IMG/VR virus record: IMGVR_UViG_3300032218_002221
Coordinates: 1-44,070 of that record
Source: a virus
Lineage: Duplodnaviria; Caudoviricetes
DNA length: 44,070 nt
Strand: one strand, 5' to 3'
Below the pieces are notes generated by a model. It ran no database searches. It was not told the DNA's origin and worked only from the letters and a program-made list of their open reading frames with translations. The position numbers and the translations under genes were made by a program. This document shows, one piece after another, positions 24,341-44,070 of this stretch (the first letter of the stretch is position 1; every line of letters begins with the position of its first letter).

Positions 24341-25720
24341 ATGGCACTTACAGTAATTAATACTACAGATACACTAGAACAAATGCGAGTTAAGTTAAAT
24401 AACTTAACACAAAATGATTTTGGTGATCCTGCTTTATTATCAACAACCGGATTTCAAGCAACATCTGTTATGGGTGCTATTGTTGAGGTTGCTGGTTATG
24501 TTACTAATACGTTTGCATTTACAGTTAAAGATACTGCAAACGCTTCTCAATTAGTTGGACCTGGTACACAACTTAGATTTGCTTCAACAACAAATCAAAT
24601 TACTGCGTCCGTTTCTTCTGGCCCAACAATAACTTTTAGTCTTCCAAATACTGTAACTGTAAATAATCAAATAAATGCAGGTAATTTGTCTTTATCTAAT
24701 GGAAGTATAACTTCATCAAGTAATAATATATCTTTTTCAAATAATAATTTAAGTACTACAGGTACATTAGGTGCTGGTGCCATAACTGCAACCTCATATA
24801 CTTCTTCAGGAAATATAACAATTAATACAAATAAATTTGTAGTTACAGGTGCAACCGGTAATACGTCAGTTGGTGGAACTTTAGGTGTAACAGGATTACT
24901 TACTTCTGCTGGAGGAATATATGTTTCTGGTGGAAATATTCAATTTGAAGGTGTTACAGCAAATGCGTTTAAAACAACGTTAGATGTTGTAGATCCTACA
25001 GCAAACAGAACAATCACATTACCTAACGTTTCAGGTGCGATTGTTACTACAGGTGATGTGGGTACAATTACAAGTACAATGATTGCAGATAGTACAATTA
25101 TAAATTCTGATATTGCTGATAATACCATTAGAGGTGTAAAATTTAATACATCTGCAGATAATGTAACATTTGCTAGCGTTACTGCTACAACTTTTACAGG
25201 TACGGCAAGTGCTGCTGCAACAGTCCAAACATCTCCTCAGGATAGTGATAGTAATCCATATTATTTAACTTTTGTAGCAAGTAATTTAGGAAGCAATCAA
25301 GTTGTAAGAACAGATACAGATTTATCATACAATCCAGGAACAAATATTTTAACTACTACTGCTTTAAAAGCACAATACGCCGATCTTGCCGAAATATATG
25401 AAACAGATAAAATATATGATATTGGTACAGTTGTAATGATAGGTGGAGAAAAAGAAGTTACAGAATGTTTTGTAGGTAAAAGAGCATTAGGAGTTATTTC
25501 AGATAGACCTGCTTTTTTAATGAACGCAAAAGGAAAAGGTCAACCTATTGCATTAAAAGGACGTGTAAAAATTAAAGTTACAGGACCTGTTAAAAAAGGT
25601 GATGAATTAGTTGCAGGTAACGGTGGTTATGCTACAACAATCAGTGAAGAATTTACAAAAGTATTTGCGATTGCTTTAGAAGATAATGATAAAGGCTTAA
25701 TCGAAGCAGTTATATTATAA
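24341..25720 (+). CDS. tail fibre with C-terminal peptidase G2-like autocleaving chaperone domain
   Basis: INTTDTLEQMRVKLN N-terminus and Thr/Gly shaft. C-terminal AQYADLAEIYETD...GTVVMIGGEKEVT...GVISDRPAFLMN...IALKGRV...KKGDELV. Confidence 0.8.
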   Translation: MALTVINTTDTLEQMRVKLNNLTQNDFGDPALLSTTGFQATSVMGAIVEVAGYVTNTFAFTVKDTANASQLVGPGTQLRFASTTNQITASVSSGPTITFSLPNTVTVNNQINAGNLSLSNGSITSSSNNISFSNNNLSTTGTLGAGAITATSYTSSGNITINTNKFVVTGATGNTSVGGTLGVTGLLTSAGGIYVSGGNIQFEGVTANAFKTTLDVVDPTANRTITLPNVSGAIVTTGDVGTITSTMIADSTIINSDIADNTIRGVKFNTSADNVTFASVTATTFTGTASAAATVQTSPQDSDSNPYYLTFVASNLGSNQVVRTDTDLSYNPGTNILTTTALKAQYADLAEIYETDKIYDIGTVVMIGGEKEVTECFVGKRALGVISDRPAFLMNAKGKGQPIALKGRVKIKVTGPVKKGDELVAGNGGYATTISEEFTKVFAIALEDNDKGLIEAVIL

Positions 25721-25743: not shown

Positions 25744-26193
25744 ATGATTGATGCTTTAACTGATGAAATTTTATCTTTCCATAGATACGAAAACAATCAA
25801 ATTATTTACATAGATAAAGAAGGCAAAGACTATAAAGTTAAAGACGAAATAACTTATGGTACTTGGATTAAAACTTATAAAGACATTCCTCATATAAAAG
25901 TTGAAGGATTGGAAGATAAATTTTTTCATTTAAAAATATTAAAAGATTTTAATTTAGATCATAAAGTAAATAGTGTTCATTTATTTTATAATCAATATGG
26001 TGGATTTTCTTTTCCTGAACATGCAGATGATACTAACGTTCTTTTATATATTGTAAAAGGATCAAAAAAAGTTTATGTAGATAATCACCCAACTTTAGTA
26101 AAAGAAGAACAAGCAATTTTTATACCCAAAGGAGTAAAACATAGAGTTGATAGTTCCGAAAACACTTGGGCATTAAGTATAGGATTTAATTAA
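25744..26193 (+). CDS. cupin/JmjC-like Fe(II) oxygenase
   Basis: SFPEHADDTNVLLYIVKGSKKV (HxD) and FIPKGVKHRV (distal His). Confidence 0.8.
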   Translation: MIDALTDEILSFHRYENNQIIYIDKEGKDYKVKDEITYGTWIKTYKDIPHIKVEGLEDKFFHLKILKDFNLDHKVNSVHLFYNQYGGFSFPEHADDTNVLLYIVKGSKKVYVDNHPTLVKEEQAIFIPKGVKHRVDSSENTWALSIGFN

Positions 26194-27230
26194 TGAATTG
26201 GATGTTTTATTTAAAGACAACTGAAACTTGTCAACTGAATTGCAAACACTGTTTTACTAGTGGCATAAACGGTAAAAAGATTTACTTTAATCATTTTAAA
26301 ACAATAGATTTCATAAAAAGATTTAGACAATATTTTAATAAAGATGAAGATACTATTCATTTAGAATTTCATGGTGGTGAACCTTTTTTGGCGCCAGTAT
26401 CTCACATGAATAAAGTATATGAAGAATGTAAAGACTTGTGGCCTAATATGTCGTGGGGCATAACTTCAAATCTTGTTTTTAAATTAAAAGACGAACATTA
26501 TGAATTTATAAAAGGACCTTTAAACAATCGTATGGGTACAAGTTGGGACCCTAAAATACGATTTGAAAATGATGCACAATATAATCTATGGGAAAAAAAC
26601 GTTAAAGATTTATTAAACAGAGGTGTTACAATTAAATTGTTTATCAGTGTAACTAAAGATACTATTGCCATGGAACCTATTGAATTATTAAAATGGATTA
26701 AAGAGTTAGGTGTACAAGAAATATCTTTTGAAAGATTAACGGGTAATGGTAATGCAAAATTACATCCTGAGATATTCCCAGATAACATAGAACAAGACAA
26801 ATGGTTTTTAAAAATGCACCATCAATCTAAAGAATTTAATTGTAGAAGTTGGTTTGACAATGAAACATTAGAGGTTATATACAGTAAATTTGAAACTGGA
26901 TTTTTAAAAGGTGGCACTTTTTGTAGAGATTGCGAACAGAAGATATTTACAATAAATGCAGATGGAACGATATCTGGATGCCCAAATTCAGCACCAGAGT
27001 TCTCCTTTGGTACTATAAATGACGATATACAAAGTATTATAAATAGTCCTATAAGAATAGAGAACATTGCTTGTGAACGTGCAAGAAATCCTATATGTTT
27101 TTCTTGCGAAGTTTTTGAGTTTTGTGGTGGTGATTGTCATCAACTTGCTTGGCAAGGAAATATATGTGGCGCACCTAAGAGTTTAATGAAGGAATTAAAA
27201 AGTAGTATAAAATATGACAACGTTAAATAA
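26193..27230 (+). CDS. radical SAM/SPASM-domain enzyme 1
   Basis: CQLNCKHC (CX3CX2C) and FHGGEPFL. C-terminal CRDC...INADGTISGCP...C...CFSCEVFEFCGGDC...C. Confidence 0.92.
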   Translation: MNWMFYLKTTETCQLNCKHCFTSGINGKKIYFNHFKTIDFIKRFRQYFNKDEDTIHLEFHGGEPFLAPVSHMNKVYEECKDLWPNMSWGITSNLVFKLKDEHYEFIKGPLNNRMGTSWDPKIRFENDAQYNLWEKNVKDLLNRGVTIKLFISVTKDTIAMEPIELLKWIKELGVQEISFERLTGNGNAKLHPEIFPDNIEQDKWFLKMHHQSKEFNCRSWFDNETLEVIYSKFETGFLKGGTFCRDCEQKIFTINADGTISGCPNSAPEFSFGTINDDIQSIINSPIRIENIACERARNPICFSCEVFEFCGGDCHQLAWQGNICGAPKSLMKELKSSIKYDNVK

Positions 27231-28101
27231 TCCAATAGAATCTCAAAATCTTATTGATAGATTTGCAGATTTTGTAACAGCAGTCGTTAATGGAAGTGCA
27301 ACAAATGTACCTGCTGATAATATAATCTGGGCAGCAGATACAAAACCATTTGCAGATTTTGATGGAAATCTATTAACAGGTAATTTGGCTGATCCAATTA
27401 CACTAAGTATTGGTGCGAATAATCTAGGAGGAAGTGGCGCTGTAATTAATGCAAATACTATTAATAGAGTTTTATTAGGACAACTTGCCATCTATACAAA
27501 TGTTAGAAAATTAAGAGCAATATTAAACGTTACGGGTGGAGGAGGAAATACAGGATCGTATGCTAATACTGGAGTTTTTTCTGATCAAACAGGTAAAGCA
27601 AAAATGAACAATTCTTATTTGCAAACGTTTGGTAGTTCATATACATTATCAGGTGTTACTCTTACAGGAACAGAAGGACAATTTTCTTGCAACAGTACAT
27701 ATTTGTTTCCTACACAGGCAATTACAGTTTCAGGAACATTAACTGGTACTGCAACTTTTATTGATCCTACTACTACAACTTCAGTTTATTCCGATCCTAC
27801 AACTTTTTATGTTGTTGCTACAAACAATTCAACAACGTTTCAATTATCGCTTAGTCGTTATGGTACACCTATTGCATCACAGTTAGGTTCATTAAATGGA
27901 TTAACTTTTCTTACATCATACGTTGTTGATAAAGCAGGAACCCAATTAGGAAGTCTAATTGGAACAACACAATTAGAAACATTTTTTACAAATTTACAAA
28001 CGCAATATACAACGGCACGAGATAATACTGTAACTATTCAAGTGGACGTATGTCATGCAAGTTGTCATAGTTCATGTCACAGTAATAGAGGAAGAAGATA
28101 A
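27214..28101 (+). CDS. virion-like protein with C-terminal (CHxS)-repeat tail; candidate substrate/precursor of the cluster
   Basis: Thr/Gly/Ser/Asn-rich composition like the fibre genes. Ends VDVCHASCHSSCHSNRGRR. It is the only structural-looking gene inside the enzyme operon. Confidence 0.75.
   Translation: MTTLNNPIESQNLIDRFADFVTAVVNGSATNVPADNIIWAADTKPFADFDGNLLTGNLADPITLSIGANNLGGSGAVINANTINRVLLGQLAIYTNVRKLRAILNVTGGGGNTGSYANTGVFSDQTGKAKMNNSYLQTFGSSYTLSGVTLTGTEGQFSCNSTYLFPTQAITVSGTLTGTATFIDPTTTTSVYSDPTTFYVVATNNSTTFQLSLSRYGTPIASQLGSLNGLTFLTSYVVDKAGTQLGSLIGTTQLETFFTNLQTQYTTARDNTVTIQVDVCHASCHSSCHSNRGRR
28051..28086 (+). repeat. three 12-nt units encoding CHAS-CHSS-CHSN
   Basis: tgtcatgcaagt tgtcatagttca tgtcacagtaat. 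Confidence 0.9.
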
Positions 28102-28787
28102 TGCAAATCATTGAAACAACGGCGCCAATATCAATAGAAGAATTAAAGAAATATTTTATAGATAAAGATACTTTCTATTTTATTGATTATTCTAAAAGTG
28201 AAATGAAAGGATCTAAACTATTAACTTATTTAAGTAATTTAGATTTGCCGGTAGATATAAAAGAACCAGATTTAGAATTAGTTAAAGATTACTTCAACAG
28301 CATTTCATTAGTAAATATTAATTCATTAGAAAATATAGCAATTAATGTTTTATTGCAATACAAAGGTTTAGTTAAAGAAGATAATTATAAAAATTTTATT
28401 GAAGAAAACAAAGAAATTGTTTCACGCTGGTCAGATATATTAGATAGTTTATCAATTTATAATTTATATACATTAAAATCAGATGAATTTAGAAATTATG
28501 CTAAAAGTTTTCCAAAAGATGATACTAAAGATTTAAAAGGTGTTAACTTTTTAAGTATCTTAAAACACGAAAATTTTTATTTATTTTACAGTAAATTAAA
28601 TTCAAATATTAAATTTTATACTCATTATTTTGATGATTATATGTTTAGAGGTAAAAATTTGTTTAGTTTTTGGAATAACAAAAATAATTTATTATTTTTA
28701 TTAACGCTTGCAGTTTCTCAAAGCAAAGGTAATGAATTTATAACTGCAAAACAACAAGATAAGGAACAAAATGTTGTACCTGTTTAA
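28101..28787 (+). CDS. hypothetical protein, cluster accessory
   Basis: Intact 228-aa ORF with TAATG coupling to the CHxS protein. No motif recognised. Confidence 0.75.
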   Translation: MQIIETTAPISIEELKKYFIDKDTFYFIDYSKSEMKGSKLLTYLSNLDLPVDIKEPDLELVKDYFNSISLVNINSLENIAINVLLQYKGLVKEDNYKNFIEENKEIVSRWSDILDSLSIYNLYTLKSDEFRNYAKSFPKDDTKDLKGVNFLSILKHENFYLFYSKLNSNIKFYTHYFDDYMFRGKNLFSFWNNKNNLLFLLTLAVSQSKGNEFITAKQQDKEQNVVPV

Positions 28788-29907
28788 AAAAGTTTATTTA
28801 GAACATGATGAAAATATAGATTTTAATTTTGATAGAGTAGTTATATCTGAATTAAATGGTGTTAAGAATTGGAGTGAAATAAAAAAAATTTCAGGTGGCG
28901 AACTTATATCATATGGAAAAGATTTAAATAGTTTAAATAATGTATCTTCTTTTTTAGAATTGCTTAATAAAGTTAAAGAACAAACTATTAAATCAAATAA
29001 ACCAGTTTTCATATATGCTGATCAAAAAAATTATTATAAAATAATTGCTTTATGGTTTAAAATTTTGTTACCAAATGCAACAACTGAAAATATAGTAGAA
29101 TATGTAAAACTGTTTTTTGATTATAAAAATTTTTTAAGAATATCTGCATATTGGAATCAAGTTGATAAAAATAAAGTTACAGATATATTTTTTTCTCAAA
29201 AAAATTTAAGAAACGAAATAAATTCATTAGATGTTAATAGAAATGATTATATGACTTTTATAAATGAAAATATTGAATCATTTAGTGTAGAATTATTATT
29301 ATCTTCTTTTTTATATAATGGTTCAAGAGCAAATGAACTAGCAAAATCAGTATTACCTTTAATTAAAATAGAAATTTCAAAACATTTATATGATTTAAGA
29401 GAAACCTTTATGTATAATTTGGTTAATGCTAAATTTCTTAAAAAAATAGGAATAGAAGAAACTTATAATATAAACAATTATATGGATATTGTAAAAAATG
29501 AAAATTCTATAGTAAAAACATTTTTTAATAATTCTGATGTTTGGAAGATAAATTCACTGTGTAGCAAAACTTACCATATATTATTAACTAATGGTTCTAA
29601 TTCATTAATTAATTTTGAAAATATTACGGAAAATGATATTGCAAATATAAAACAATTTTTAGATATTCTTGGTATAGACAATAGAGAATCAAATTTTTTA
29701 ATTGAAATTATTCCCTTATTAAAAACAAATTCAGTAACAACTGAAGAATTAAAAACCTTAATTTCATATCAAAATCAACAAGATAGTTCCTTTACTACTG
29801 GTACTTTTTATGGTTTAGGTTTTCCTAGTATTAATACTTACTTTATACAACATATTTTTAATGTATATGAAGATAACAAAGAATTATTGAGCGGTTATGT
29901 TATATAA
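28771..29907 (+). CDS. hypothetical protein, cluster accessory, very AT-rich
   Basis: Intact 378-aa ORF with a 17-nt overlap and AAGGA SD. No motif recognised. Confidence 0.75.
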   Translation: MLYLFKKVYLEHDENIDFNFDRVVISELNGVKNWSEIKKISGGELISYGKDLNSLNNVSSFLELLNKVKEQTIKSNKPVFIYADQKNYYKIIALWFKILLPNATTENIVEYVKLFFDYKNFLRISAYWNQVDKNKVTDIFFSQKNLRNEINSLDVNRNDYMTFINENIESFSVELLLSSFLYNGSRANELAKSVLPLIKIEISKHLYDLRETFMYNLVNAKFLKKIGIEETYNINNYMDIVKNENSIVKTFFNNSDVWKINSLCSKTYHILLTNGSNSLINFENITENDIANIKQFLDILGIDNRESNFLIEIIPLLKTNSVTTEELKTLISYQNQQDSSFTTGTFYGLGFPSINTYFIQHIFNVYEDNKELLSGYVI

Positions 29908-29909
29908 AG

Positions 29910-30950
29910 GTGAAAATGCAAGAAGATATATCATTTTACAAAGTAATAGATAATAAAGTTATTGATTGGTCTGAAATTGTTTTATGCTTATTTGAACATT
30001 GCAATTTATCATGTTCTTTTTGTCCACAAGATCATTCCAGTATATTAGGCGCTTCAGAAAAAGAAATCTTAAATAAAGTTCCTACGATAACCCGTTACAT
30101 TGAACGAAACGATAGATCAAAACATTTTATAATAAACACTATGGGTGGTGAACTGTTACAAGATACGTGGACAGACAAAGGCTTCTTAGATATATATTCT
30201 AAATTTGTAAAACAAGTTAGAGAAAAGGTTTCTTCTGATAAAACAATCGTATTTAATTTTGTTACTAATCTTGTATTTGATAAAACAGATTTAATTGTAG
30301 ATTTCATTAAAAAAAATAATATCATACTATCAGTTTCTTATGACATTGTAGGCAGATTTAATACGTTGGCATTAGAGACTTTTAAAAAAAATATAGATAT
30401 TTTTAAACCTCATATTAAAATGATAAGTTGTGTTTTAACTAAACAAAACATTCAAAAGATAGTTGCAGGTGATGAATACTTTGATTATCTGTATAATAAT
30501 TTTGAAATACATTTTGATTCTTTATTACCAAGTGTAACTAGAAAAACAAATGTCTTTATGATGCCTGCTGAATCAGAAACATTTAAATTCTATAAACTAT
30601 GTGTTGACAAATATCCTAAAATGTTAAACATAGAACCATTTTTAAATGGCAAAATAAATAATAGAATGGGTTGTACTAAAGGCAACAGTTTAACAGTAAT
30701 GCCAGATGGTAGTATACCTAGAGGTTGTTCGGGTGCGGTATTATTAAAAGACGCAACTCAAAATACAGAAGATTTGGGCGGCACTAAAATTATTGAAAAC
30801 TTTATGAAAAAATATAATTGTTTTGAATGTGAGTTTTTTCAAAGATGCCCTTTTACTTGTTTTATAAAACAAGATTTTAAATTTATTGAACATGATATGA
30901 AAGAATGTGTGTTTAAGGAAACATTTAGGTATGCTGATTCAAAAAAATAA
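29910..30950 (+). CDS. radical SAM/SPASM-like enzyme 2 (start GTG 29910 or ATG 29916)
   Basis: CNLSCSFC and MGGELL. C-terminal GCTKG...VMPDGSIPRGC...CFECEFFQRCPFTC...C. Confidence 0.9.
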   Translation: MKMQEDISFYKVIDNKVIDWSEIVLCLFEHCNLSCSFCPQDHSSILGASEKEILNKVPTITRYIERNDRSKHFIINTMGGELLQDTWTDKGFLDIYSKFVKQVREKVSSDKTIVFNFVTNLVFDKTDLIVDFIKKNNIILSVSYDIVGRFNTLALETFKKNIDIFKPHIKMISCVLTKQNIQKIVAGDEYFDYLYNNFEIHFDSLLPSVTRKTNVFMMPAESETFKFYKLCVDKYPKMLNIEPFLNGKINNRMGCTKGNSLTVMPDGSIPRGCSGAVLLKDATQNTEDLGGTKIIENFMKKYNCFECEFFQRCPFTCFIKQDFKFIEHDMKECVFKETFRYADSKK

Positions 30951-32577
30951 AATAGCATTTATAAATCCACCATATACTGATTGGAGTTTAGCAAATAATA
31001 TGACCTATTTAATGATGCAAAGTCATTATAAAAGATTTGGCAAATACTATAACAGATTTGAATGGTTAGAAGCTCCTTATAAATTTAATAAGTACAAAGA
31101 TATAAAAGATATATACAATGAAGTTCCTAATGCAGACATTTATTTAATTAGTAGTTATGTATGGAATTATGATATATGTGATTTGTTTGCTCAACATGTT
31201 AAAAAAATAAACAAAAATGCTTTATGTATATTAGGCGGTCCACATATAGGTACAAATGAACCTGAGTTTTTAAAATCAAGAAAATTTTATGATTTTATAT
31301 GTCAACCTACAAAACCTGGTGAAGTTTTTATAGAAGATTTTTTAAATTCTTATATAGACAATAACGGCAAAGTTAATAAAGAAGATATCAGTTGGGAAAT
31401 GAATAGTACAAAACAAACTAAATGTGGCCTGCCTGATTATTCAATATATGAAGAACATTTTGATTATGTAAAAAAAATATGCAACTATTCAAAAGAACAT
31501 AAAATGGAAGCAATTATTGTATTAGAAACTACAAGAGGTTGTCCATACAAATGTGTGTATTGTGAATGGGGTGGCGGATTAGATACTAAAATTATAAAGA
31601 AAAAAGTAGATGTTGCTAAGAGAGATATTTCTGCTATGAAGCGTGCTGGTTATACACGTGCATTTTTAACAGATGCAAATTTTGGAGCTTTTGAAGAAAG
31701 AGATTTAGAAATATTTAAATTTGCATGGCAACAAGGAGTGCATTTAACAGATATATCTACAATGAAATCTAAAGATTTAAATAGAAGAAAAAGGTTAGTT
31801 GATTGTTGGTTTGAAATAGTAGGACCTAGGGGTGAAGATGAATTAGATTTAATTGTTCCTGCTGTTTCAATTCAAAGTATATCTGATGAAGCAATGAAAG
31901 TTGCTAAAAGAGTTGATTTATCATCTAAAGATAAAATAGAACTGAGTAAACATATAGGAAAACAATGTAAAGAAAAAGGTTATCCTGTACCATCACTAGA
32001 ATTAATATTAGGAATGCCTGGTTCAACATTAAAAGATTTTTATGATGAAATGGAAATTATATGGAATTTTAAAGCACTTAGTAATAACAGACACGATTAT
32101 ATGTTATTGCCAGATAGTTATATAAGCAAAAAAGAATATTTGGAACAATATAAAATTCAACCTGTAAAAGTATATACTGATTTTGTAGATGATTCTGGTG
32201 TAGACAATGTACATAGTTTATATAAACAAAAACAAAATTATTTCCATACAATACAAAGTTGTTATAGTTTTACCAAAGAAGAAATGCACGAAATGTTTTT
32301 TATGAATCAAGCTTGTAATAAATTATTAGAATTGATATATCCAATGTTTGAAGAAAAATTAACACCTGGTAATTTTTGTAAAGAATGTTTTGCTATAATA
32401 AAAGAATTACCTGAGTATAGTAAAATAAATAATTATATTATAGATTTATACGATATTAATACTCCTCCAAAAAGTATTAAAAAAATAAATGGAAGATTTA
32501 GAACTGAAATTATTGATGAAATGGTTTTAAATAATAAACATATTATAATAAGTAAGATGTTTAGAAAATGGATTTAA
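30931..32577 (+). CDS. cobalamin-binding-domain radical SAM enzyme (class B methyltransferase-like); start revised to ATG 30931
   Basis: N-terminal Rossmann-like IAFINPP...ISSYVWN...CILGGPH. Then LETTRGCPYKCVYCEWG, TDANFG, SIQS and ELILGMPG. Confidence 0.88.
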   Translation: MLIQKNKIAFINPPYTDWSLANNMTYLMMQSHYKRFGKYYNRFEWLEAPYKFNKYKDIKDIYNEVPNADIYLISSYVWNYDICDLFAQHVKKINKNALCILGGPHIGTNEPEFLKSRKFYDFICQPTKPGEVFIEDFLNSYIDNNGKVNKEDISWEMNSTKQTKCGLPDYSIYEEHFDYVKKICNYSKEHKMEAIIVLETTRGCPYKCVYCEWGGGLDTKIIKKKVDVAKRDISAMKRAGYTRAFLTDANFGAFEERDLEIFKFAWQQGVHLTDISTMKSKDLNRRKRLVDCWFEIVGPRGEDELDLIVPAVSIQSISDEAMKVAKRVDLSSKDKIELSKHIGKQCKEKGYPVPSLELILGMPGSTLKDFYDEMEIIWNFKALSNNRHDYMLLPDSYISKKEYLEQYKIQPVKVYTDFVDDSGVDNVHSLYKQKQNYFHTIQSCYSFTKEEMHEMFFMNQACNKLLELIYPMFEEKLTPGNFCKECFAIIKELPEYSKINNYIIDLYDINTPPKSIKKINGRFRTEIIDEMVLNNKHIIISKMFRKWI

Positions 32578-32578
32578 T

Positions 32579-33100
32579 ATGAACGAATTAAATTTATTTC
32601 CTACAAAGATATATACAGATAATATTGATAAAGAGTATTGTCTTTTATTATCTTCTTGGTCTTTACAACAAACATTATATTTTTCAGATGAAGATGATAA
32701 TTGGACTATTGAAGATGTTAAACAAAAATTGAATGATCCTATTTTAAAAAATTTATTTAATAAAACTAAAGGAGTAATTAGAGATATTTGGTTAAGAAAC
32801 GAACATGATCATTTTGATTTACATTGTGATGATCATCACAATACTACTCATATAGCTATTGTTTGGGTTAGTGGAGAAAATAATAAAGGAGGAGATTTAA
32901 TATTATATGACCCACTTTGGAGAAATCCTCAAAAATTAAAAAAAAATGAGTGTACTTTTACTCATACTATAAAATTTGAAATTGGTAAAATAGTTATTTT
33001 TCCTAGTAATGTATGGCATAAAGTAACAAAATATAATGGTAATGAAAAAAGATTAGTAATTAATGTTGCATTAGATTTGAAAAATGGATTTGATAATTAA
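32579..33100 (+). CDS. 2OG-Fe(II) oxygenase (TIGR02466-like)
   Basis: NLFPTKI, LHCD (HxD), GGDLILYDP and GKIVIFPSNVWHKV...KRLVI. Confidence 0.8.
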   Translation: MNELNLFPTKIYTDNIDKEYCLLLSSWSLQQTLYFSDEDDNWTIEDVKQKLNDPILKNLFNKTKGVIRDIWLRNEHDHFDLHCDDHHNTTHIAIVWVSGENNKGGDLILYDPLWRNPQKLKKNECTFTHTIKFEIGKIVIFPSNVWHKVTKYNGNEKRLVINVALDLKNGFDN

Positions 33101-34175
33101 ACCTACTGAGTTGTGTAACTTTAAATGTACTTTCTGTTCTAGTACAAAGATATCTGATAATAGAAAAGACGAACTATCTCACGATTATATATTTTCATTT
33201 TTAAAACGTTTTCCTGAAACAAAAACTATCATAGTAAATGGTGGTGATCCTTTAATGATGGAACCTGAATACTATTGGAAGATTATTAGATGGTTAGATG
33301 AGCATGATTATGATACATCTATTGCATTGACTACAAATCTATGGCCGTTTTATAAGAAACCAGAGAAGTGGTCTGATCTATTTAATAATGAAAGAGTTGG
33401 CATAACTACATCATTTCAATATGGTGGTGGCCGTCTTAAAGGAGATTTAACAGAATTTACAGAAGAAGATTTTTGGAAATGCTCAGATGCAATGTTAAAA
33501 CATTGTGGTTACAGACCAGATTTTATATCTGTTATTGTCCCTGAAAATGAAAAAGATGCAATTAAAAACGTAGAACTTGCAAAGCGTATGAGTGAAGATG
33601 TTGTACCTGATGGTACATTACATAACTTTTCACGCAACAGTAAAACCGGTGTAGAATGTAAATTAAACTATGCAATGGCAAGTGGCGAACAAGGTAAACC
33701 GTATTTGTTAAGTAAAATATATAAAATCTACGTAGAGATATGGAAACGTGGTCTTGCGCCTTGGGAATTTAATACAAAACAAATGATGCAAAGATTAACT
33801 GGTGGTAGAACATCATGTCCTCAAAATCGTAAATGTGATAGTGGTATTCGTGCATTAAATCCTAGTGGTGATTATTATTCTTGTGGTTCTTTTGGCGATG
33901 ATAAAGATAAGTCAATAGATTTTGATAAAGAAATGAAAGGTGAGTTTTTTACGCCATTACAAGATGATGTTAATCTTATTAGTATGAAGAAGGCCTGCTT
34001 TACTTGTCCTATGTTTGAGATATGTAATGGTTGCAGAAAAACAATTAAAGATTTAAAACAGCATAATATGGTGGAAGAACATTGTAAGTTAATGAAATCT
34101 ATTGCACCAGATATACTTAAATCTAACGGACTAAATATAGAAGTAACGCCTTATATAGATGAAAGTACATTATGA
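33084..34175 (+). CDS. radical SAM/SPASM-domain enzyme 3
   Basis: IIKPTELCNFKCTFC and NGGDPLM. C-terminal CPQNRKC...LNPSGDYYSCG...CFTCPMFEICNGC...HC. Confidence 0.92.
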   Translation: MDLIIKPTELCNFKCTFCSSTKISDNRKDELSHDYIFSFLKRFPETKTIIVNGGDPLMMEPEYYWKIIRWLDEHDYDTSIALTTNLWPFYKKPEKWSDLFNNERVGITTSFQYGGGRLKGDLTEFTEEDFWKCSDAMLKHCGYRPDFISVIVPENEKDAIKNVELAKRMSEDVVPDGTLHNFSRNSKTGVECKLNYAMASGEQGKPYLLSKIYKIYVEIWKRGLAPWEFNTKQMMQRLTGGRTSCPQNRKCDSGIRALNPSGDYYSCGSFGDDKDKSIDFDKEMKGEFFTPLQDDVNLISMKKACFTCPMFEICNGCRKTIKDLKQHNMVEEHCKLMKSIAPDILKSNGLNIEVTPYIDESTL

Positions 34176-34756
34176 AAAACTATAAAACAAATTATGGAAA
34201 AGTAATTGCAGGTATTGACACAGATGATAATGACAAATATTTTTCTATTACAGTTAGTCCTTATGAGCCAAATTTTGAAGATAATTTAGAAGAAGGAATA
34301 AAAGAAGTCGTATTTGCTTTCTTAAATAAAAATTATATGACTATTAATAGTTGCGAAGGACACGATTCTGGTTGGGATAATCCTTATATAACATTAGCAT
34401 TTGTGGAAGAAAATGAAAGAGAAGATATAATAAAAAAAATGAAGAAAATACCTTTTGTTACATTTGAATTAAAAAAATATATTTTTAATATTAAATTTGT
34501 AGATAAAAATAACAAAAAATTTAAAATAATAGATGAAAGTAATTATGACGTTAAGTTAGAAGCGCAATCTGTTAATAATTTATATCTTAAAAAATATAAA
34601 AATTATTGTTATTTAGAAATAGTATTTTTTAAATATAGTGATAATTTATTTCAAAGATATTTTATGCTTTTTATGAAACGTTTGTTTTTTAAAATTATTA
34701 AAAATAAACTAATAAATATAATAAAAGATAAAGAATTTCCTGTTTATGATAAATGA
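34172..34756 (+). CDS. hypothetical protein with TINSCEGH motif
   Basis: Intact ORF with ATGA overlap. Contains LEEGIKEVV...YMTINSCEGH...PYI. Confidence 0.7.
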   Translation: MKNYKTNYGKVIAGIDTDDNDKYFSITVSPYEPNFEDNLEEGIKEVVFAFLNKNYMTINSCEGHDSGWDNPYITLAFVEENEREDIIKKMKKIPFVTFELKKYIFNIKFVDKNNKKFKIIDESNYDVKLEAQSVNNLYLKKYKNYCYLEIVFFKYSDNLFQRYFMLFMKRLFFKIIKNKLINIIKDKEFPVYDK

Positions 34757-35339
34757 TATGAATGAAGGTTTAAATAATTTTTGGGCTACACCAATATTAA
34801 AAGATACTATCACTGATAAAAGTATATTAGATGACGTTGTCACTTATATTCTATCTAGTTACAATTCTGAAGATTTAAAAGTTTCATTAAGTGTTAAAGA
34901 TCAAAATCTATTTGATAATAAACAATTTGATACGTTTAAAGAAAAGATTGTTATACCTTCTTTCCAAAAATACATAGAATTGCAAAATTTTAATATCAAT
35001 CTATCTAAAAAAGAATTTCATTTAAAGGCATGGATAACGGGCAACAAATCATCTTATTTTGTTCCTAAACATAATCATTCAGGCGCTCATTTATGTGCAG
35101 TGTTTTATTTATTATGCGAAGAACAAGATCAAGGTGGTGCATTAGCAATACATGACCCTAGACATAATGCAAATAGAGGATATACTTCTGAGTTTAATGA
35201 ATGGTTTAAACCTATAAGATTTTTTCCTAAATCAGGTGATATAGTTATATTTCCAAGTTTTACATATCATAGTGTAGAAACATTTTTTGGAAAAATGAGA
35301 CTTGCTGTACCTGTAGATTTGTTTTTAAAAGATGACTAA
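34746..35339 (+). CDS. 2OG-Fe(II) oxygenase (TIGR02466-like)
   Basis: FWATPI, HNHSGAHLCAVFY, GGALAIHDPR and GDIVIFPSFTYHSV...MR. Confidence 0.85.
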   Translation: MINDMNEGLNNFWATPILKDTITDKSILDDVVTYILSSYNSEDLKVSLSVKDQNLFDNKQFDTFKEKIVIPSFQKYIELQNFNINLSKKEFHLKAWITGNKSSYFVPKHNHSGAHLCAVFYLLCEEQDQGGALAIHDPRHNANRGYTSEFNEWFKPIRFFPKSGDIVIFPSFTYHSVETFFGKMRLAVPVDLFLKDD

Positions 35340-35838
35340 TATTGAACAACATAAATCTAATTTTCTTACAAAAGGATTTACTGTATTTAAAGGTAATAAA
35401 TATACTGATCTTGTAAATCTTGATACTATTGAATGGAATTTTCCTGGTATAGATCACGACTATCATCCTACTGGAGATACTAAACAGTTAGATAAGGCTT
35501 TAATGGCCATACATTTTAATATTTCAAATGAAATAGTGCAACCCATGTTTGGTGAACATGTTATGGGAGATCGTCAAATGTGGGAAGGCATTGCTAAAAA
35601 AGCAAGTGAATGGCATAATGATATAGAGGAATGTGATTTCTTTTTTATACTATATTTCTCAGAAATGAAAAAATATAGTCAAGGAGAAATACAGTTTAAA
35701 ACAGATAAAGAAATGTGGACATTTTATCCAAGTGTTGGTTCTTTGGTGTTAGTTAATAATGATACAAAATTTAAACATAGGGCAGGTAAAACAGATAGAC
35801 AAAGAATACAAGCATCTTTTAACTTTAATCATATATGA
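35332..35838 (+). CDS. 2OG-Fe(II) oxygenase (prolyl-hydroxylase-like fold)
   Basis: WHNDIE (HxD), ILYFS, GEIQF and FKHRA...RIQASF. Confidence 0.82.
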   Translation: MTNIEQHKSNFLTKGFTVFKGNKYTDLVNLDTIEWNFPGIDHDYHPTGDTKQLDKALMAIHFNISNEIVQPMFGEHVMGDRQMWEGIAKKASEWHNDIEECDFFFILYFSEMKKYSQGEIQFKTDKEMWTFYPSVGSLVLVNNDTKFKHRAGKTDRQRIQASFNFNHI

Positions 35839-36407
35839 TAAACAAAGGATTTAATAATTGTTGGCCTACAACAATATTGAAAAATAATATAAAAGACAAA
35901 GAATTATTAAATCGTATTGTTAATTATATTCATTTAAACTATATTAACAAAAATATTACAGATCAAAATATATTTGAAGATACTTTTTTTAATCTTTTTG
36001 TGGATAAAGAAATATTACCTATATTTAATGAATATTTAAATTTTGTTAATATAGATTTAAAAAAAGAAAAACATTTTTTAAGAGGTACTCTAACAGGTTC
36101 TAATATTATTAATACAATCCCTACACATAATCAATATGATTCTCATATTACAGGATTATTTTATATATTATCTGACGAGAAAGAAACTGGTGGTACTTTA
36201 ATACTCAAAGATCCTAGATTTAATGCAGATAGAGGGTATCATTTAAATAAAAAATTTAAAAAATGGTTTGAACCTGAAATTATAAAACCCCAAACAACAG
36301 ATGTTATTATTTTTCCTAGTTTTGCATATAATAATATAGATATGTCATATGGTAAAATAAAATTAATTATGCAAGTTGAATTAACACTGTTGAAAGATTA
36401 TGAATAA
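35835..36407 (+). CDS. TIGR02466-like oxygenase paralog with degenerate metal ligands
   Basis: Aligns by eye with 34746-35339 (DPRFNADRGY, IIFPSF), but HNH>HNQ and YHSV>YNNI. Confidence 0.75.
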   Translation: MINKGFNNCWPTTILKNNIKDKELLNRIVNYIHLNYINKNITDQNIFEDTFFNLFVDKEILPIFNEYLNFVNIDLKKEKHFLRGTLTGSNIINTIPTHNQYDSHITGLFYILSDEKETGGTLILKDPRFNADRGYHLNKKFKKWFEPEIIKPQTTDVIIFPSFAYNNIDMSYGKIKLIMQVELTLLKDYE

Positions 36408-37326
36408 TATAAAAATATCAATTAATCCTAGTTATTTTTGCAACTTTAGATGCAACTTTTGTTATCTTACACCTGAACAATTGGGAGATCAAAAAAAAAT
36501 ACCATTAGCAATACTTGATCAAAGACTTAAAGAAATTAGTAGAGTAAGGAAGATTGATTGGGTAGATTTATATGGCGGTGAAATAGGTGCATTAAAAAAA
36601 GAATATTTTTATGGATTAAAAGATGTTATAAGAAAATATTATAAAGATAAGATTAATATTATAACTAATCTTTCAATGTTACATGAGGGTTTTTTTGAAC
36701 CTGATTTTTATTTAGGAGTGAGTTATGATTTTGAAGCAAGAGAAAAGTCTGATTTAGTTTATAATAACATGTTTCATAGTCCTGTGCCTATTGCAGTACT
36801 GATACTTGCAAGTGAAAAGGTATTAAAAATGAATGTTGATGATATGATACAAAAAATGAATTTATGTTCTAGTATAGAAAGCGTAGAGATTAAACCGTAT
36901 TCAATAAATCAAGCAAATTCACAACCCGTTACTCATAAAGACTTTGAGTTATTTGTAAAAAAATGGATTGAAAGTCCTATAAGAAAAAGATTTGATTTTA
37001 TAAATGAAGGTAATATAATTAAAAGTTTAAAAAAAGAATATAACGCATTTTCAAACAATCACGTTTATATAACACCTAATGGCAATTTTGCTGTGTTAGA
37101 ATTTGATGAAAATGATAAAGAATATTTTTTAGAACTAAATTCAATTAAAGAATATATAAAATGGGCAGAACAGGAACCAATTAATAATGTTTCTGATATA
37201 TGTAGAAAGTGTAAATATTATGGCCATTGTTTAACAGAACATTATCGTTATGTAAAAGATTTAGATAACGGTTGTAATGGATATAAAGGATTGTTGGATT
37301 ACTATGCACAAAGAATGGAAAATTAG
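36400..37326 (+). CDS. radical SAM enzyme 4 with partial SPASM-like C-terminus
   Basis: CNFRCNFC and LYGGEIG. YITPNG hairpin lacks flanking Cys. C-terminal CRKCKYYGHC...GC. Confidence 0.9.
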   Translation: MNNIKISINPSYFCNFRCNFCYLTPEQLGDQKKIPLAILDQRLKEISRVRKIDWVDLYGGEIGALKKEYFYGLKDVIRKYYKDKINIITNLSMLHEGFFEPDFYLGVSYDFEAREKSDLVYNNMFHSPVPIAVLILASEKVLKMNVDDMIQKMNLCSSIESVEIKPYSINQANSQPVTHKDFELFVKKWIESPIRKRFDFINEGNIIKSLKKEYNAFSNNHVYITPNGNFAVLEFDENDKEYFLELNSIKEYIKWAEQEPINNVSDICRKCKYYGHCLTEHYRYVKDLDNGCNGYKGLLDYYAQRMEN

Positions 37327-37708
37327 ACAAGAACTATATCATAGAATGGTTACAGATCATGGTGATGATCTTAATAAATTACAGGTAGAATTTTCTAATG
37401 ATATAGTTGAAAATGCTGTAAGATATTTTTACAATAAAGATATGCCTTTTATATATCCTTCTAAAAGTTATGTTGTGGCTATTTGTTATGCTTACTGGTT
37501 ATCAAAAGATTTTAATGAAGATTTTTATGAATTATTAAATGATAGTGATTTGTTATATGGAAATGATCCTCATTTTAAGATTTATGATGCCGACATAAAT
37601 ACTTATGACAGTATATTAAACAAAATTATGCCTTTAGATGAGAATAAAGGTATCGTTCCTGACATAAAAGAATACTATAAGAAAGAGTTTTTAATAGATG
37701 AATCTTAA
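37304..37708 (+). CDS. hypothetical protein, cluster accessory (likely start ATG 37304)
   Basis: MHKEWKIRQELYHR...IYPSKSYVVAICYAYWL...LLYGNDPHF. Overlaps both neighbours. Confidence 0.75.
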   Translation: MHKEWKIRQELYHRMVTDHGDDLNKLQVEFSNDIVENAVRYFYNKDMPFIYPSKSYVVAICYAYWLSKDFNEDFYELLNDSDLLYGNDPHFKIYDADINTYDSILNKIMPLDENKGIVPDIKEYYKKEFLIDES

Positions 37709-38459
37709 TTTTGATTATCAATTTGATGTGTATAAATTCCATGAAATGGGATTTAATATTGGTTTATTACCTAATGATATTGCACAAGAAGCAAAATCTA
37801 TAATTAAAAATACAAAATTTAAAAATTTCGTAGAGATTAACGAAAAAAATAAGATCGAAGATATTAATTTAAATAATCAATTTCCTGTTGCGGCTTCTTG
37901 GTCTCAAATGCCTTACGACACTTTAACTACTATAATGTCTCCTAACAATTCAAAAGAATTGAAAGAAATATTTACAATAAATGATTTTCCATATGAAGAA
38001 AGATTGAGAGAATTATATTGTTTTAATAATGCTCCTTTAGAAGTTAAGCATTTAGCAAATAAAGTAATTACAATGGATTTTTTTAAACCTTTGAGAGAAA
38101 GCTTTGTTAGAGAACAACATAAAAATACTTCTTGGTTAAGAACAATAAAATCTTTTACTTATGGTCTTTGGAATGGAACTGAAAATTTGCCTTGGCATAA
38201 TGATACTGACGATTGTTGTAATATGATGATATTAATGTATTTTAACGAAGAAAAAACTTGGAAAGAAGAATGGAAAGGACAAATCTGTTTTGGTAAAGAA
38301 CAAGAGAACGGTGAAATAAAAGAAATATATCAGCATTTTCCTGTAGATTCTAGTTTTGTTTGTATTAACAATTATAATCCTTTAATGAGACATAAAACAA
38401 TTGCAAACGATTATAGTAAAAATAGATTTACTTTTAATTTTAAATTTAAATTTGAATAA
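37698..38459 (+). CDS. 2OG-Fe(II) oxygenase
   Basis: LPWHNDTD, ILMYFN..TWKEEWKGQI and MRHKT...RFTFNF. Confidence 0.85.
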   Translation: MNLNFDYQFDVYKFHEMGFNIGLLPNDIAQEAKSIIKNTKFKNFVEINEKNKIEDINLNNQFPVAASWSQMPYDTLTTIMSPNNSKELKEIFTINDFPYEERLRELYCFNNAPLEVKHLANKVITMDFFKPLRESFVREQHKNTSWLRTIKSFTYGLWNGTENLPWHNDTDDCCNMMILMYFNEEKTWKEEWKGQICFGKEQENGEIKEIYQHFPVDSSFVCINNYNPLMRHKTIANDYSKNRFTFNFKFKFE

Positions 38460-38988
38460 CTTTGTCTAAAGATGGAACGAAATAATCAAAAGTCATAACA
38501 CGTCTATTTACATTATCATTATTAATATTTGCTTTATGTTTAAATGCGTTGCTTACATTTAACATAAACAAGTCACCTTTTTTAGGAAATAAATTAAATT
38601 CTTCTGTGTCGTTTTTAATATCAAATCCATTATTATGTTCTTTAGTATCATCTAAGTACAAATTAAAAACTAAACAAATATTTAAATCTGCCCAAGTGTC
38701 TACATCACTGTGCCATTTACGTGCTTTATTGTGAGCTAGATTGACACCTAATTTACGAAGATTTTTATATTCAGAACCAAAAAAACTTACATATCTTTGT
38801 TCTATTAATTCTGCAAATTCATTTATTATAGGAATTAATAAAGGGTCATTTTTATAAACAAAATCATCTGATTGATTTCCTGCTTGAATAAAGTTAAAAT
38901 TATCAAAGTTATATTTAAATGCTTCTGGAAATGAAAATACCGTAAAACCCTTTATATAAAAGTCATTTAAATGTTCAGTTTTTAACAT
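38446..38988 (-). CDS. 2OG-Fe(II) oxygenase, convergent with the operon
   Basis: KWHSD, NLYLDD, PKKGDL and FKHKA...RRVMTF. Paralog of 35332-35838. Confidence 0.85.
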   Translation of the reverse strand: MLKTEHLNDFYIKGFTVFSFPEAFKYNFDNFNFIQAGNQSDDFVYKNDPLLIPIINEFAELIEQRYVSFFGSEYKNLRKLGVNLAHNKARKWHSDVDTWADLNICLVFNLYLDDTKEHNNGFDIKNDTEEFNLFPKKGDLFMLNVSNAFKHKANINNDNVNRRVMTFDYFVPSLDKVIQI

Positions 38989-43027: not shown

Positions 43028-43044
43028 TTAACTAGAGAGAATAA

Positions 43045-44070
43045 ATGGCAGATTTTATTTTAGGTCGTATAAAGTTTCAATTTCAAGGTCCTTGGACAAC
43101 AGGTACAGCATACATTAAAGATGACGTTGTTAAATTTGGTGGTCAATCTTATGTATGTTTAATTAATCATACAGCAGCTGCAAATTTCTATACAGATGCA
43201 AATGCTGCAACTCCATTATGGTCTGTAATGACTTCTGGAACAGATTACAAAGGAGATTGGACATCTGGAAATGGAACATCAACTTTCTTTTACAAATTAA
43301 ATGACGTTGTTAAATATGGTGGAATAAACTATATTTGTACTTTATCTCATTTTTCTGCAGCAAGTTTTGATCCTTCAAAATGGTCAATTTATGTTCCAGG
43401 ATTTAATTGGGTTTCTGCTGGATATACAAATGGTGGAACTTATAAATTAAACGATATCGTAAAATATGGTCCATCACTTTATATTTGTACAAGTGCATTA
43501 CCATTTACAAGTTCTACAGATACAATTGATCTAACAAAATTTAGTTTATTTGTTGCTGGTTTAGATTATGAAAGTTCTTGGAATTCAGCTACTGCTTATC
43601 AACCTGGCGATACAGTAAGTTACGGCGGTTACACTTATACTGCTAATCTTTCAAACACAAATAAAGTACCTTCTACTAATACATCTGAATGGACAGTATT
43701 TACAACTGGTTATAGTAGTGCAGGTGTATGGAGTAGTTCAACTGCTTATAAAATAGGATCAGTAATTAATTATGGAGGTAACGCTTATGTTGCTTTACAA
43801 GATAACACAAATGCTGCTCCTGCTGCCGCTGGAGATTCAAACTGGTCATTATTAATTAAAGGATTTAACTTTATTGATGCAGGTTGGATTAATGGAACAA
43901 CATATTATCCAGGAGATACAGTAAGATATGCTTCATCAACTTATAGAGCAAAAATATCTCATGTAGGAAATAACTCAACTACAAGACCTGATTTAGATAC
44001 AAATGCTGTTTATTGGGCACTAGTTGCTGCGGGAGATTCAAATTCAGTATTATCTGCACGTGGAGATATA
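43045..44070 (+). CDS. tail/virion protein with tandem CBM5/12-like (chitin-binding type) repeats, partial (absent from ORF track)
   Basis: MADFILGRIKFQFQGPWTTGTAYIKDDVVKFGGQSYVC... is open to the window end. About six W-x4-9-Y-x2-(G/N/D)(D/S)-x-V-x-(Y/F)G-x2-Y repeats. Confidence 0.85.
   Translation, partial: MADFILGRIKFQFQGPWTTGTAYIKDDVVKFGGQSYVCLINHTAAANFYTDANAATPLWSVMTSGTDYKGDWTSGNGTSTFFYKLNDVVKYGGINYICTLSHFSAASFDPSKWSIYVPGFNWVSAGYTNGGTYKLNDIVKYGPSLYICTSALPFTSSTDTIDLTKFSLFVAGLDYESSWNSATAYQPGDTVSYGGYTYTANLSNTNKVPSTNTSEWTVFTTGYSSAGVWSSSTAYKIGSVINYGGNAYVALQDNTNAAPAAAGDSNWSLLIKGFNFIDAGWINGTTYYPGDTVRYASSTYRAKISHVGNNSTTRPDLDTNAVYWALVAAGDSNSVLSARGDI

Follow-up and report, generated by a model that had tools for sequence, protein, structure and literature searches.

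In the HXS system (HxsA/B/C/D; TIGR03976-03979), several radical SAM enzymes act with a small partner to mature a protein that is folded, with a +8 Da shift mapped to an SHRSS motif, and the product is a periplasmic defense effector (PMC13128918). The triceptide enzymes HtkB, HaaB, and YhhB cross-link His-C2 to the Cβ of X3, Ala being among the X3 residues, in precursors that carry tandem His-X2-X3 motifs (PMC11499958). CrpC (CrpAC) modifies a 29-kDa protein, a further precedent for a radical SAM-modified protein, and C-terminal cysteines with CX3C spacing lie beside SPASM enzymes in ranthipeptide and thioether systems (PMC13692751). The MAT fibers of the predatory bacterium Bdellovibrio are phage-like, trimeric, and S74 chaperoned (PMC10769870).

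The window analyzed here is a 44,070-nucleotide stretch of a virus (Duplodnaviria; Caudoviricetes), positions 1 to 44,070 of IMG/VR record IMGVR_UViG_3300032218_002221. It carries a kit of radical SAM enzymes and partner proteins around a tail-bearing protein, SUB. Like the HXS substrate, SUB has His-x-Ser repeats in a basic context, but its repeats are C-H-x-S with a period of 4, they are accompanied by four radical SAM enzymes and three unrelated unknown proteins, and its product is likely found on virions or on the cell surface. Block enzymes scored 37.3 versus 370 bits for HxsB and 30.9 versus 267.9 bits for HxsC, while SUB and U1, U2, U3, and U4 had no NCBIfam match to HxsA or HxsD and none in PADLOC. 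Tandem His-X2-X3 motifs are shared with triceptide precursors. Unlike these, SUB belongs to a family of folded proteins of 120 to 460 aa with Cys before nearly every His, and the YhhB, AmcB, FxsB, XyeB, and GrrM models gave <35 bits against cutoffs of 310 to 450 (YhhB, 31.9 versus 445). The CX3C-spaced C-terminal cysteines beside SPASM enzymes recall ranthipeptides, but the SUB tail has no Asp/Glu acceptor, the kit is multi-enzyme, and R1 has no room for an N-terminal RRE because its radical SAM motif begins at residue 13. None of the radical SAM enzymes of the block reached an NCBIfam maturase cutoff (best, PapB, 47.6 versus 340; CXXX-repeat model TIGR04115, 35.9 versus 350). MATs are proteins of ∼1,000 aa that bear a signal peptide, whereas the cassette neighbors are 320 to 410 aa with prepilin-like N termini, and the MAT paper does not contain the word "radical" (PMC10769870). 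We found no description of the system in the literature, and no curated family cutoff was reached.

Sixteen consecutive plus-strand open reading frames (ORFs) (25744 to 38459) and a convergent ORF (38446 to 38988) make up the block, as the earlier note had it (Table 1), and the tail-fiber and virion genes that it saw on either side are T4-like baseplate and fiber genes. Intergenic spacing within the block ranges from +2 to −50 nt. Start calls placed too far upstream at 30907 and 37277 are the probable cause of the two largest overlaps; in an alignment of 37277, Met12 is the start position in most homologs. Recurrence of this gene set across many loci puts the arrangement far beyond chance.

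Table 1. Features of the cassette and its upstream neighbor (positions in the window; counts refer to dereplicated phage loci)
Feature	Position	Strand	Evidence
TF1, fiber-like protein, usual neighbor upstream of cassette	24341..25720	+	PHROG tail-fiber match
Cupin/JmjC-like protein, core	25744..26193	+	Cupin_2 above cutoff; HAD93...H133; 27/27 loci
R1, radical SAM-SPASM, core	26193..27230	+	SPASM above cutoff; phrog_1802; 27/27 loci
TATAAATA, presumed T4-type late-promoter motif in R1 coding sequence	27038..27045	+	176 nt upstream of tail gene
SUB, likely substrate and virion component	27214..28101	+	Conserved fold of ∼190 aa, ∼100-aa insertion, tail CHASCHSSCHSNRGRR
U1, core, usually directly 3' of SUB	28101..28787	+	phrog_20767; 27/27 loci
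U2, core	28771..29907	+	26/27 loci; no family found
R2, radical SAM, SPASM-like Cys pattern, core	29910..30950	+	27/27 loci
B12-binding radical SAM, accessory	30907..32577	+	11/27 loci
2OG-Fe(II) oxygenase, accessory	32579..33100	+	2OG-FeII_Oxy_5 above cutoff; HxD...H
R3, radical SAM, SPASM-like Cys pattern, core	33084..34175	+	27/27 loci
U3, accessory	34172..34756	+	5/27 loci; no family found
2OG-Fe(II) oxygenase, phrog_81 type, common accessory	34746..35339	+	Type in 23/27 loci
2OG-Fe(II) oxygenase-like, common accessory	35332..35838	+	Weak Pfam match; HND...H; type in 24/27
Degenerate oxygenase-fold protein without iron triad	35835..36407	+	Weak 2OG-fold match, E 3.6e-4
R4, radical SAM, half SPASM pattern, core	36400..37326	+	27/27 loci
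U4, core	37277..37708	+	phrog_20737; 24/27 loci
2OG-Fe(II) oxygenase-like, rare accessory	37698..38459	+	Pfam E 0.06; HND...H; type in 3/27
Convergent 2OG-Fe(II) oxygenase-like, accessory	38446..38988	-	Weak Pfam match; HSD...H

All five radical SAM enzymes counted in the earlier note have the CX3CX2C motif, conserved in homologs, and a Radical_SAM match, which exceeds the Pfam cutoff for 30907 and 33084; four of them match phrog_1802. The SPASM-like Cys-rich C termini described for four enzymes were recovered in 26193, 29910, and 33084 (7 to 8 conserved C-terminal Cys) but only as the second half in 36400, which has four such cysteines (C268/271/277/292). Only 26193 passed the SPASM domain cutoff (Pfam, 25.9 versus 21.5; TIGR04085, 34.5 versus 27); 29910 and 33084 have the Cys pattern, with a model score below cutoff or no match. 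R3 is the best conserved (51 to 65% to cultured phages), and the best NCBIfam matches of both R1 and R3, though below cutoff, are peptide or protein maturases. The B12-binding match of 30907 is weak (20.5 versus a cutoff of 32.1), and its best NCBIfam model is KedN5 (83 bits versus a cutoff of 700).

The core, comprising the cupin, the four SPASM-type radical SAM enzymes, U1, U2, U4, and SUB, is conserved. Most core genes occur in 26 or 27 of 27 dereplicated phage loci and 37277 occurs in 24. All 67 R1 loci with ≥2 kb of downstream sequence had the SUB tail, and all 80 tail loci with flanks had a CX3CX2C ORF. R1 and U1 occur in the same 15 phage records, and the tail gene lies right after R1 in the four that were examined. 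Bacteria and a second architecture among phages have a reshuffled gene order, yet the set is still together. The cassette is also present in cultured jumbo phages; in the phiKZ-like carriers RSL2 and DT01, no TF1 homolog lies beside it. Locus G145, an apparent case of homologous enzymes without a CHxS-tailed gene, does have a tail gene, which is short and divergent and ends CHSNCYTPPPKSRSRR; in it the SUB body has shrunk to ∼80 residues and an RSRR-ended Cys tail remains.

Around this core the complement varies. The earlier note counted seven oxygenase-family proteins; 37698 keeps HND...H despite its weak Pfam match, whereas 35835 reads HNQ...YNN and is probably inactive as an oxygenase because the HxD/H motif is absent. 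The oxygenase set differs between loci, and none of the four cultured-phage loci examined yielded the B12 enzyme. This enzyme and most of the 2OG oxygenases are accessory genes; the B12 enzyme and the 2OG oxygenases would provide optional tailoring at most. With the B12 enzyme in 11/27 loci, a variable oxygenase set, and one degenerate copy, the suggestion that methyls and hydroxyls are installed is weaker than the rest of the proposal. We found no support for a connection of the B12 enzyme with the BtuB-like receptor of the window, the receptor being present in 0/5 B12-positive and 0/5 B12-negative contigs, all of them fragments.

The 27214 protein ends in CHASCHSSCHSNRGRR, as had been read from the sequence. 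The tail pattern is CHxSCHxSCHxxRxRR, with C, H, and R invariant in 68/68 unique sequences, and the residue at His+2 is Ser, Asn, or Ala in 1041/1059 cases (Ser in 935/1059), statistics that are partly circular in that the motif itself was used to gather many of the sequences and the loci are related to each other. The tail has three His-X-(S/N/A) motifs. The body diverges to ∼20% identity, and nine tail residues are invariant; in one variant the inner Cys is gone and His-x-Ser is kept. SUB takes variable inserted domains, one of them Gly-rich, has no C-terminal S74 domain, and ends at RxRR. An AF2 model reached a pLDDT of 72.8, low at residues ∼145 to 235, and had no PDB match (Foldseek E > 4; VIA best Z 3.8). 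Only uncharacterized proteins matched SUB in BFVD, that of phage Atu_ph07 among them, and a homotrimer prediction for the 190-aa homolog from locus L005 was uninformative (score 0.00). Full-length SUB found nothing in cultured phages by tblastn; homologs there came from the neighborhood instead. Profile or sequence searches of SUB, U1, U2, U4, and R1 against solved structures gave nothing significant. U1, a candidate substrate-recognition partner, had a confident model and no clear fold match (best Z 4.6 over ∼55 residues), and the ESM Atlas yielded nothing usable for U1 or U2.

The tail gene is preceded by TATAAATA, which we take to be a match to the T4-type late-promoter consensus. The motif lies ≤300 nt before the tail gene in 77/104 viral loci, compared with 0/105 for U1 and 1/92 for R1, and 36/40 R1 "IN[SN]" sites spell it. 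It is not enriched by count in the window (11 versus 16.3 expected), and only its position is informative. The window's own phage is uncultured. In PEG-purified virions of Atu_ph07, the SUB homolog gp170 was detected with 8 peptides (35% coverage), and the enzymes of its cassette are absent, with none of gp164 to gp169, gp171, and gp172 on the virion proteome list (PMC6102473 Table S5). The abundance of gp170, a 31.9-kDa protein, was highest in gel band 1 (PMC6102473 Table S5); such migration could reflect aggregation or disulfide bonding, given that no reductant is listed for the gel buffer. Together, the co-occurrence of tail and enzymes, the presence of a homolog in virions, and the late-promoter motif before the gene lend independent support to the proposal that the enzymes act on a CHxS-tailed virion protein, not a secreted peptide.

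The TF1 homolog of Atu_ph07, gp176, is also found in virions. The C-terminal domain of TF1 starts with YADLAE, is present in 26/27 dereplicated loci, and is presumably a self-cleaving chaperone; it may be common in T4-like phages irrespective of the cassette. The segment preceding it is not conserved, and thus no common docking site is evident on TF1.

The kit is not confined to phages, as a phage-only reading would have it, since Bdellovibrionota chromosomes carry it too (13/40 GTDB pattern matches were off-frame or chance and were excluded). There it adjoins prepilin/S74-chaperone genes predicted to encode pilus fibers, with S74 proteins in 8/9 loci scanned, and the bacterial SUB copies have no obvious signal peptide as judged by eye. 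U1 and a chaperone-like protein, WND, share 14 genomes of 401 (∼0.9 expected), 12 of them on one contig within 15 kb. WND homology to TF1 is weak (HMM E 1.3e-5 for 1/9; hhalign probability 33%). Among genomes with WND only, 7/8 carry a sister multi-radical SAM cluster with a Cys-tailed protein. In phages, the S74 motif directly follows the Cys tail of the sister protein in 11/12 (2/14 sister-pattern matches were excluded as off-frame or chance), and against cultured phages this protein matches through its S74 domain only. The sister body scored 31 against SUB in hhalign, compared with ≤13 in 25 shuffles, and support is moderate with tails removed (probability 54%); the two proteins are probably homologous, judging from these profile comparisons.

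We assign a probability of roughly 0.6 to the reading that the kit accompanies a single, likely late-made and particle-borne protein, likely cross-links its C-terminal tail, and probably finishes an attachment-fiber tip. The four radical SAM enzymes, the cupin, and the three unknowns would cross-link the (Cys-His-x-Ser)3-RxRR tail, with repeats or steps divided among the enzymes; that the tail is their substrate we consider likely. The −2 Da cross-links would be of the triceptide kind, connecting His with the Cβ of Ser/Asn/Ala at i+2, or Cys thioethers, or both; by analogy either chemistry is conceivable at somewhat less than even odds, and the two are not exclusive. Tentatively, RxRR with U1, U2, and U4 may form a recognition system replacing leader peptide and RRE. 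We lean slightly toward a finished protein that sits on the fiber or baseplate and serves adhesion or fiber stability. Against the scheme, eight core genes are a lot for 16 residues. More speculatively, radical SAM enzymes might make the Cys-His tail the rigid polycyclic, possibly metal-binding tip of a portable adhesin module with at least two interchangeable tail chemistries. T4-like and phiKZ-like tails would carry this module, as would type IV pili in predatory bacteria, where prepilin/S74 adaptors would attach it.

With three Cys and three His, all well suited as ligands, the tail could be an unmodified metal or cluster site, and the enzymes could build a cofactor, glycan, or small molecule that the fiber binds or carries. 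Four radical SAM enzymes plus oxygenases do resemble a multistep pathway, and a glycosyltransferase-8-like gene neighbors the kit in one bacterial locus (L238), with similar ORFs in L223 and L230. We consider this unlikely: it leaves the strict Ser/Asn/Ala at His+2 and the terminal RxRR unexplained, the best matches of R1 and R3, though below cutoff, are to peptide or protein maturases, and the core has no precursor-supplying or transferase gene. The tail might instead be a RiPP core, cut off after modification as a free peptide acting on host or prey, with the body as a large leader or carrier. Its C-terminal position, the shrunken body with its retained tail in G145, and the repeated His-x-Ser, as in triceptide precursors (PMC11499958), fit such a precursor; the body, however, keeps a conserved fold, takes inserted domains, and is packaged in virions, the core has no protease or exporter, and the sister family has a fiber chaperone after its tail, all of which makes a released peptide quite improbable.

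Fiber genes are nearly as constant neighbors as the tail gene (26/27), and WND travels with two different radical SAM sets, as would be expected if the enzymes modified a neighboring fiber or host surface protein and the tailed protein were a co-inherited adaptor. Yet each tail type comes with its own radical SAM set, WND being the same with both, and the fibers have no invariant motif outside the chaperone domain, so we regard another target as very unlikely. Phage radical SAM enzymes reportedly contribute to the hypermodification of bases, oxygenases of phrog_81 count as auxiliary genes, and the oxygenase set here varies; unrelated auxiliary or DNA-hypermodification genes could have gathered in a variable tail-region island. 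This may hold for some accessory oxygenases. For the block as a whole we give it very little credence because of the co-occurrence, the core being fixed across T4-like phages, phiKZ-like phages, and bacterial chromosomes and free of nucleotide-modification genes.

If the tail-cross-linking reading is true, viruses finish a particle protein by natural-product-type radical chemistry, for which we found no described case in the literature. It is directly testable, since cultured carriers exist, one of them with virion proteomics already. It would assign a purpose to a large group of genes annotated as "radical SAM domain" or hypothetical in many aquatic T4-like phages and in jumbo phages (the tail proteins form 887 clusters at 50% identity), would add four uncharacterized enzyme families and three unknown protein families, and would link phage adsorption structures with the prey-contact structures of Bdellovibrionota.

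The 44-kb virus fragment carries T4-like baseplate, wedge and fibre genes, as judged by family searches of the window. An ORF check recovered all 16 plus-strand genes of the block and the convergent gene as first described, with the CX3CX2C motif present in five of its proteins. Of the four core radical SAM (rSAM) enzymes claimed to have SPASM-like, Cys-rich C-termini, R1, R2 and R3 have seven or eight conserved Cys residues there and R4 has only four. The HxD/H...H triad is kept in six of the seven proteins called cupin- or oxygenase-like and is lacking in the one at 35835. None of the block enzymes reached the cut-off of an NCBIfam maturase model. A tie between a phage-borne receptor in the window and the B12 rSAM was not supported when checked.

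Features of the window (gene labels or ranges) and of viral or bacterial comparison loci (L- and P-numbers)
Location	Feature	Observation
4882-6621 (-)	TonB-dependent receptor, phage-borne	Top model vitamin B12 receptor, 186 bits versus cut-off of 600; next non-B12 model, 80; relatives at 16 viral loci
24341-25720	TF1, fibre-like gene upstream of cassette	C-terminal chaperone-like domain
25744	Cupin	
26193, 29910, 33084, 36400	R1, R2, R3, R4 (core rSAMs)	
27214	SUB, presumed substrate	Tail CHxSCHxSCHxxRxRR
28101, 28771, 37277	U1, U2, U4 (core, no known family)	
30907	B12 rSAM	
34172	U3 (accessory)	
43028-44070	Open frame, ~342 aa	Reaches window end
L032-L035 (about 11016-12384), P0040	Gly-rich domain inserted in or fused to SUB	In L032-L035, SUB gene appears as two ORFs, tail on second only
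L228:3907-4266	Cassette fragment, 4.3-kb contig, Dysosmobacter assembly	CHxSCHS repeats extended; R3 falls with phiKZ-like phages (quick R3 tree)
L233:17582-18628	Prepilin-like/S74 protein	Above prepilin model cut-off
L256:6562-7170	Tail variant, inner Cys lost	CHSNHCSHSNHGSRGRR
L258:4310-4918	Tail variant, inner Cys lost	CHSSHSSHSSHSSRGRR; short protein with phage-type TF1 chaperone domain takes the place of WND

Searches with R1 and with U1 each matched the identical 15 of 50,697 phage records (Atu_ph07, Phosso, the RSL2/RSF1 group and pPa_SNUABM_DT01, several being duplicate records). CHxSCHxSCHxxR[GS]RR ends the gene after R1 in all four cultured-phage records examined. R1 also had 198 IMG/VR matches, of which the best 80 were used; 67 of these extend for 2 kb or more downstream, and every one has the tail. 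The earlier note had looked to neighbourhood conservation across viral metagenomes, and enzymes and tail do recur together: among 27 loci that cover the whole block and remain after dereplication at 90% R1 identity, core genes are found in 24 to 27, with the cupin, R1 to R4, SUB and U1 in every locus, U2 in 26 and U4 in 24. The TF1 fibre domain lies upstream in 26, two oxygenase types occur in 24 and 23, the B12 enzyme in 11 and U3 in 5. From the reverse side, a tail-pattern search of viral DNA gave at least 121 stretches; each of the 80 flanked loci contains a CX3CX2C ORF of 200 aa or longer, and the fibre domain is present in 66. This set overlaps the R1-seeded one, and both include relatives. 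With a SUB profile, matches with E values of at most 0.001 fall into 887 clusters (50% identity), and the canonical tail ends 136 of the top 150 matches. The system is real and widespread. It also exists in a second phage architecture with reordered enzyme genes and a doubled tail gene; two short tail genes (124 to 140 aa) lie in tandem directly after the fibre gene in L086, L097, L102, L110, L221, L227 and others. The phiKZ-like carriers L087, L088, L145 and L003 have extra rSAM paralogues after R4.

Across 89 aligned sequences, identity in the SUB body falls to ~20%, while nine residues (three each of Cys, His and Arg) never change. In 349 unique SUB sequences, 1040 of 1059 tail His residues are preceded by Cys, and 1041 have Ser, Asn or Ala at position +2; these figures are partly circular because many sequences were gathered by the tail motif. 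The body has no Cys in 254 of the 349. In the predicted structure, the core is modelled with confidence and the insertion with low confidence, and the tail is unstructured.

In the window, the motif TATAAATA, the consensus of T4 late promoters, is found 176 nt upstream of SUB. Of 104 viral loci, 77 have it no more than 300 nt from SUB; for the other genes the share is 0 to 17%, apart from a rare type of oxygenase (6/19). In 36 of the 40 loci where the motif falls on Ile-Asn-Ser/Asn codons of R1, the exact spelling TATAAATA is used.

A SUB homologue is present in virions. In the proteome of Atu_ph07 virions, gp170 is represented by 8 peptides that cover 35% of it (PMC6102473, Table S5); its computed mass agrees with that of the SUB homologue (31,894 Da). 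Fibre gp176 is also listed, while the cassette cupin, rSAMs and unknowns are absent from rows gp57 onward of that list (PMC6102473). gp170 peaks in gel band 1; gp57-62, 64 and 65 (29 to 32 kDa) peak in bands 7-8, and gp63 is larger than these (PMC6102473). Since the particles were PEG purified and no reductant is listed for the buffer (PMC6102473), gp170 may run in band 1 through disulfide linkage or aggregation.

A tail-pattern scan of GTDB gave 40 stretches: 13 off-frame or chance matches, 6 phage-like contigs within assemblies, 16 titled Bdellovibrionota and 5 others. The neighbours of the cassette in nine bacterial loci (102 proteins) were scanned with Pfam, which showed housekeeping genes and no capsid, portal or terminase families. 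S74 fibre chaperone domains were found in eight of the nine, on proteins with prepilin-like N-termini, and the ninth has three S74 genes 12 to 15 kb away on the same contig. A fibre neighbourhood is observed in two very different settings. The prepilin-like/S74 proteins (320 to 410 aa, one to three per locus in L214, L218, L223, L230, L233, L238, L243 and L263) are candidate pilus-mounted fibres. WND, a bacterial 200-aa protein weakly like the TF1 C-terminal domain, occurs once per genome, no more than 14 kb from U1, in five of five genomes. Among 401 Bdellovibrionota genomes, 17 have U1, 22 have WND and 14 have both, with the two on one contig within 15 kb in 12 of the 14 (hypergeometric P of ~1e-17 for co-occurrence, in genomes that are related, incomplete and partly seeds of the profiles). 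In a quick tree rooted only at its midpoint, the 13 R3 sequences from bacteria group together on long branches (SH-aLRT 93), which would be consistent with long residence in bacteria.

In seven of the eight WND-only genomes, WND adjoins another type of multi-rSAM cluster, in which one protein has a Cys-rich tail unlike that of SUB; in the eighth genome the stretch runs to the end of its contig. The protein with this tail, CICNxDCxCNxVCxCxxxCxCxY, lies among several rSAMs in bacterial L247-L252 and L254 and in viral L267-L271, L273, L274 and L276-L280. The sister system accounts for 12 of 14 viral pattern matches, with a TF1-type fibre adjacent in 8. A YSDxxLK motif follows the Cys tail in 11 of the 12 viral proteins, and both sister proteins tested pass the S74 cut-off. 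S74 domains mediate fibre trimerisation and then cleave themselves off, according to PMC10769870, which would leave the sister's Cys tail as the C-terminal end of a mature, trimeric fibre protein. Profile comparison of sister and SUB gave 89.8% probability at full length and 54% once tails were removed. The score without tails was 31.4; 25 column-shuffled controls reached 13.0 at most, and a reversed one 11.3. This likeness is the best indirect argument, of moderate strength, that SUB may be a fibre-tip component.

We consider it probable (roughly 0.6) that the cassette serves to mature a tail carried by a virion protein associated with fibres; the core rSAMs would act on the SUB tail before or during assembly. 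One option would be three-residue cross-links on His-X-(Ser/Asn/Ala), a sequence that fits the triceptide-type cyclophane pattern outlined in the part available of PMC11499958; the tail variant that keeps His-x-Ser and loses the inner Cys also favours this option. Cross-links from the tail Cys would suit the CX3C spacing, as in the thioether formation on CrpA that PMC13692751 describes. With four enzymes at hand, both may occur. Because the N-terminus of R1 is too short to hold an RRE, our guess is that U1, U2 or U4 might recognize the RxRR end. Tail maturation is made less likely by the eight core genes, which seem many for 16 residues, by the lack of conservation in the fibre segment that would dock SUB, and by the absence of TF1 beside the cassette in phiKZ-like carriers.

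The nearest characterised system is the HXS (His-x-Ser) antiphage system (PMC13128918), which resembles the cassette in having a protein with His-x-Ser repeats and rSAM maturation, the latter proposed for the cassette. In tests for membership of the HXS family, the cassette shares the motif alone and differs in all else. In the portions available, carrier-phage papers give cassette genes as annotations without function (PMC8066314, PMC11898562), one reports a T4-like genome with 12 rSAM genes (PMC5332604) and another lists RP12/RP31 rSAM genes (PMC5468394). We found no description of the cassette in a literature set with poor coverage of subscription papers, the RSL2/RSF1 virion proteome paper not included, and the system is apparently undescribed. 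The cassette is accepted by no known family, and that literature yielded no virus-encoded radical maturation of a particle protein, although bacteria and archaea offer precedents for chemistry of this kind.
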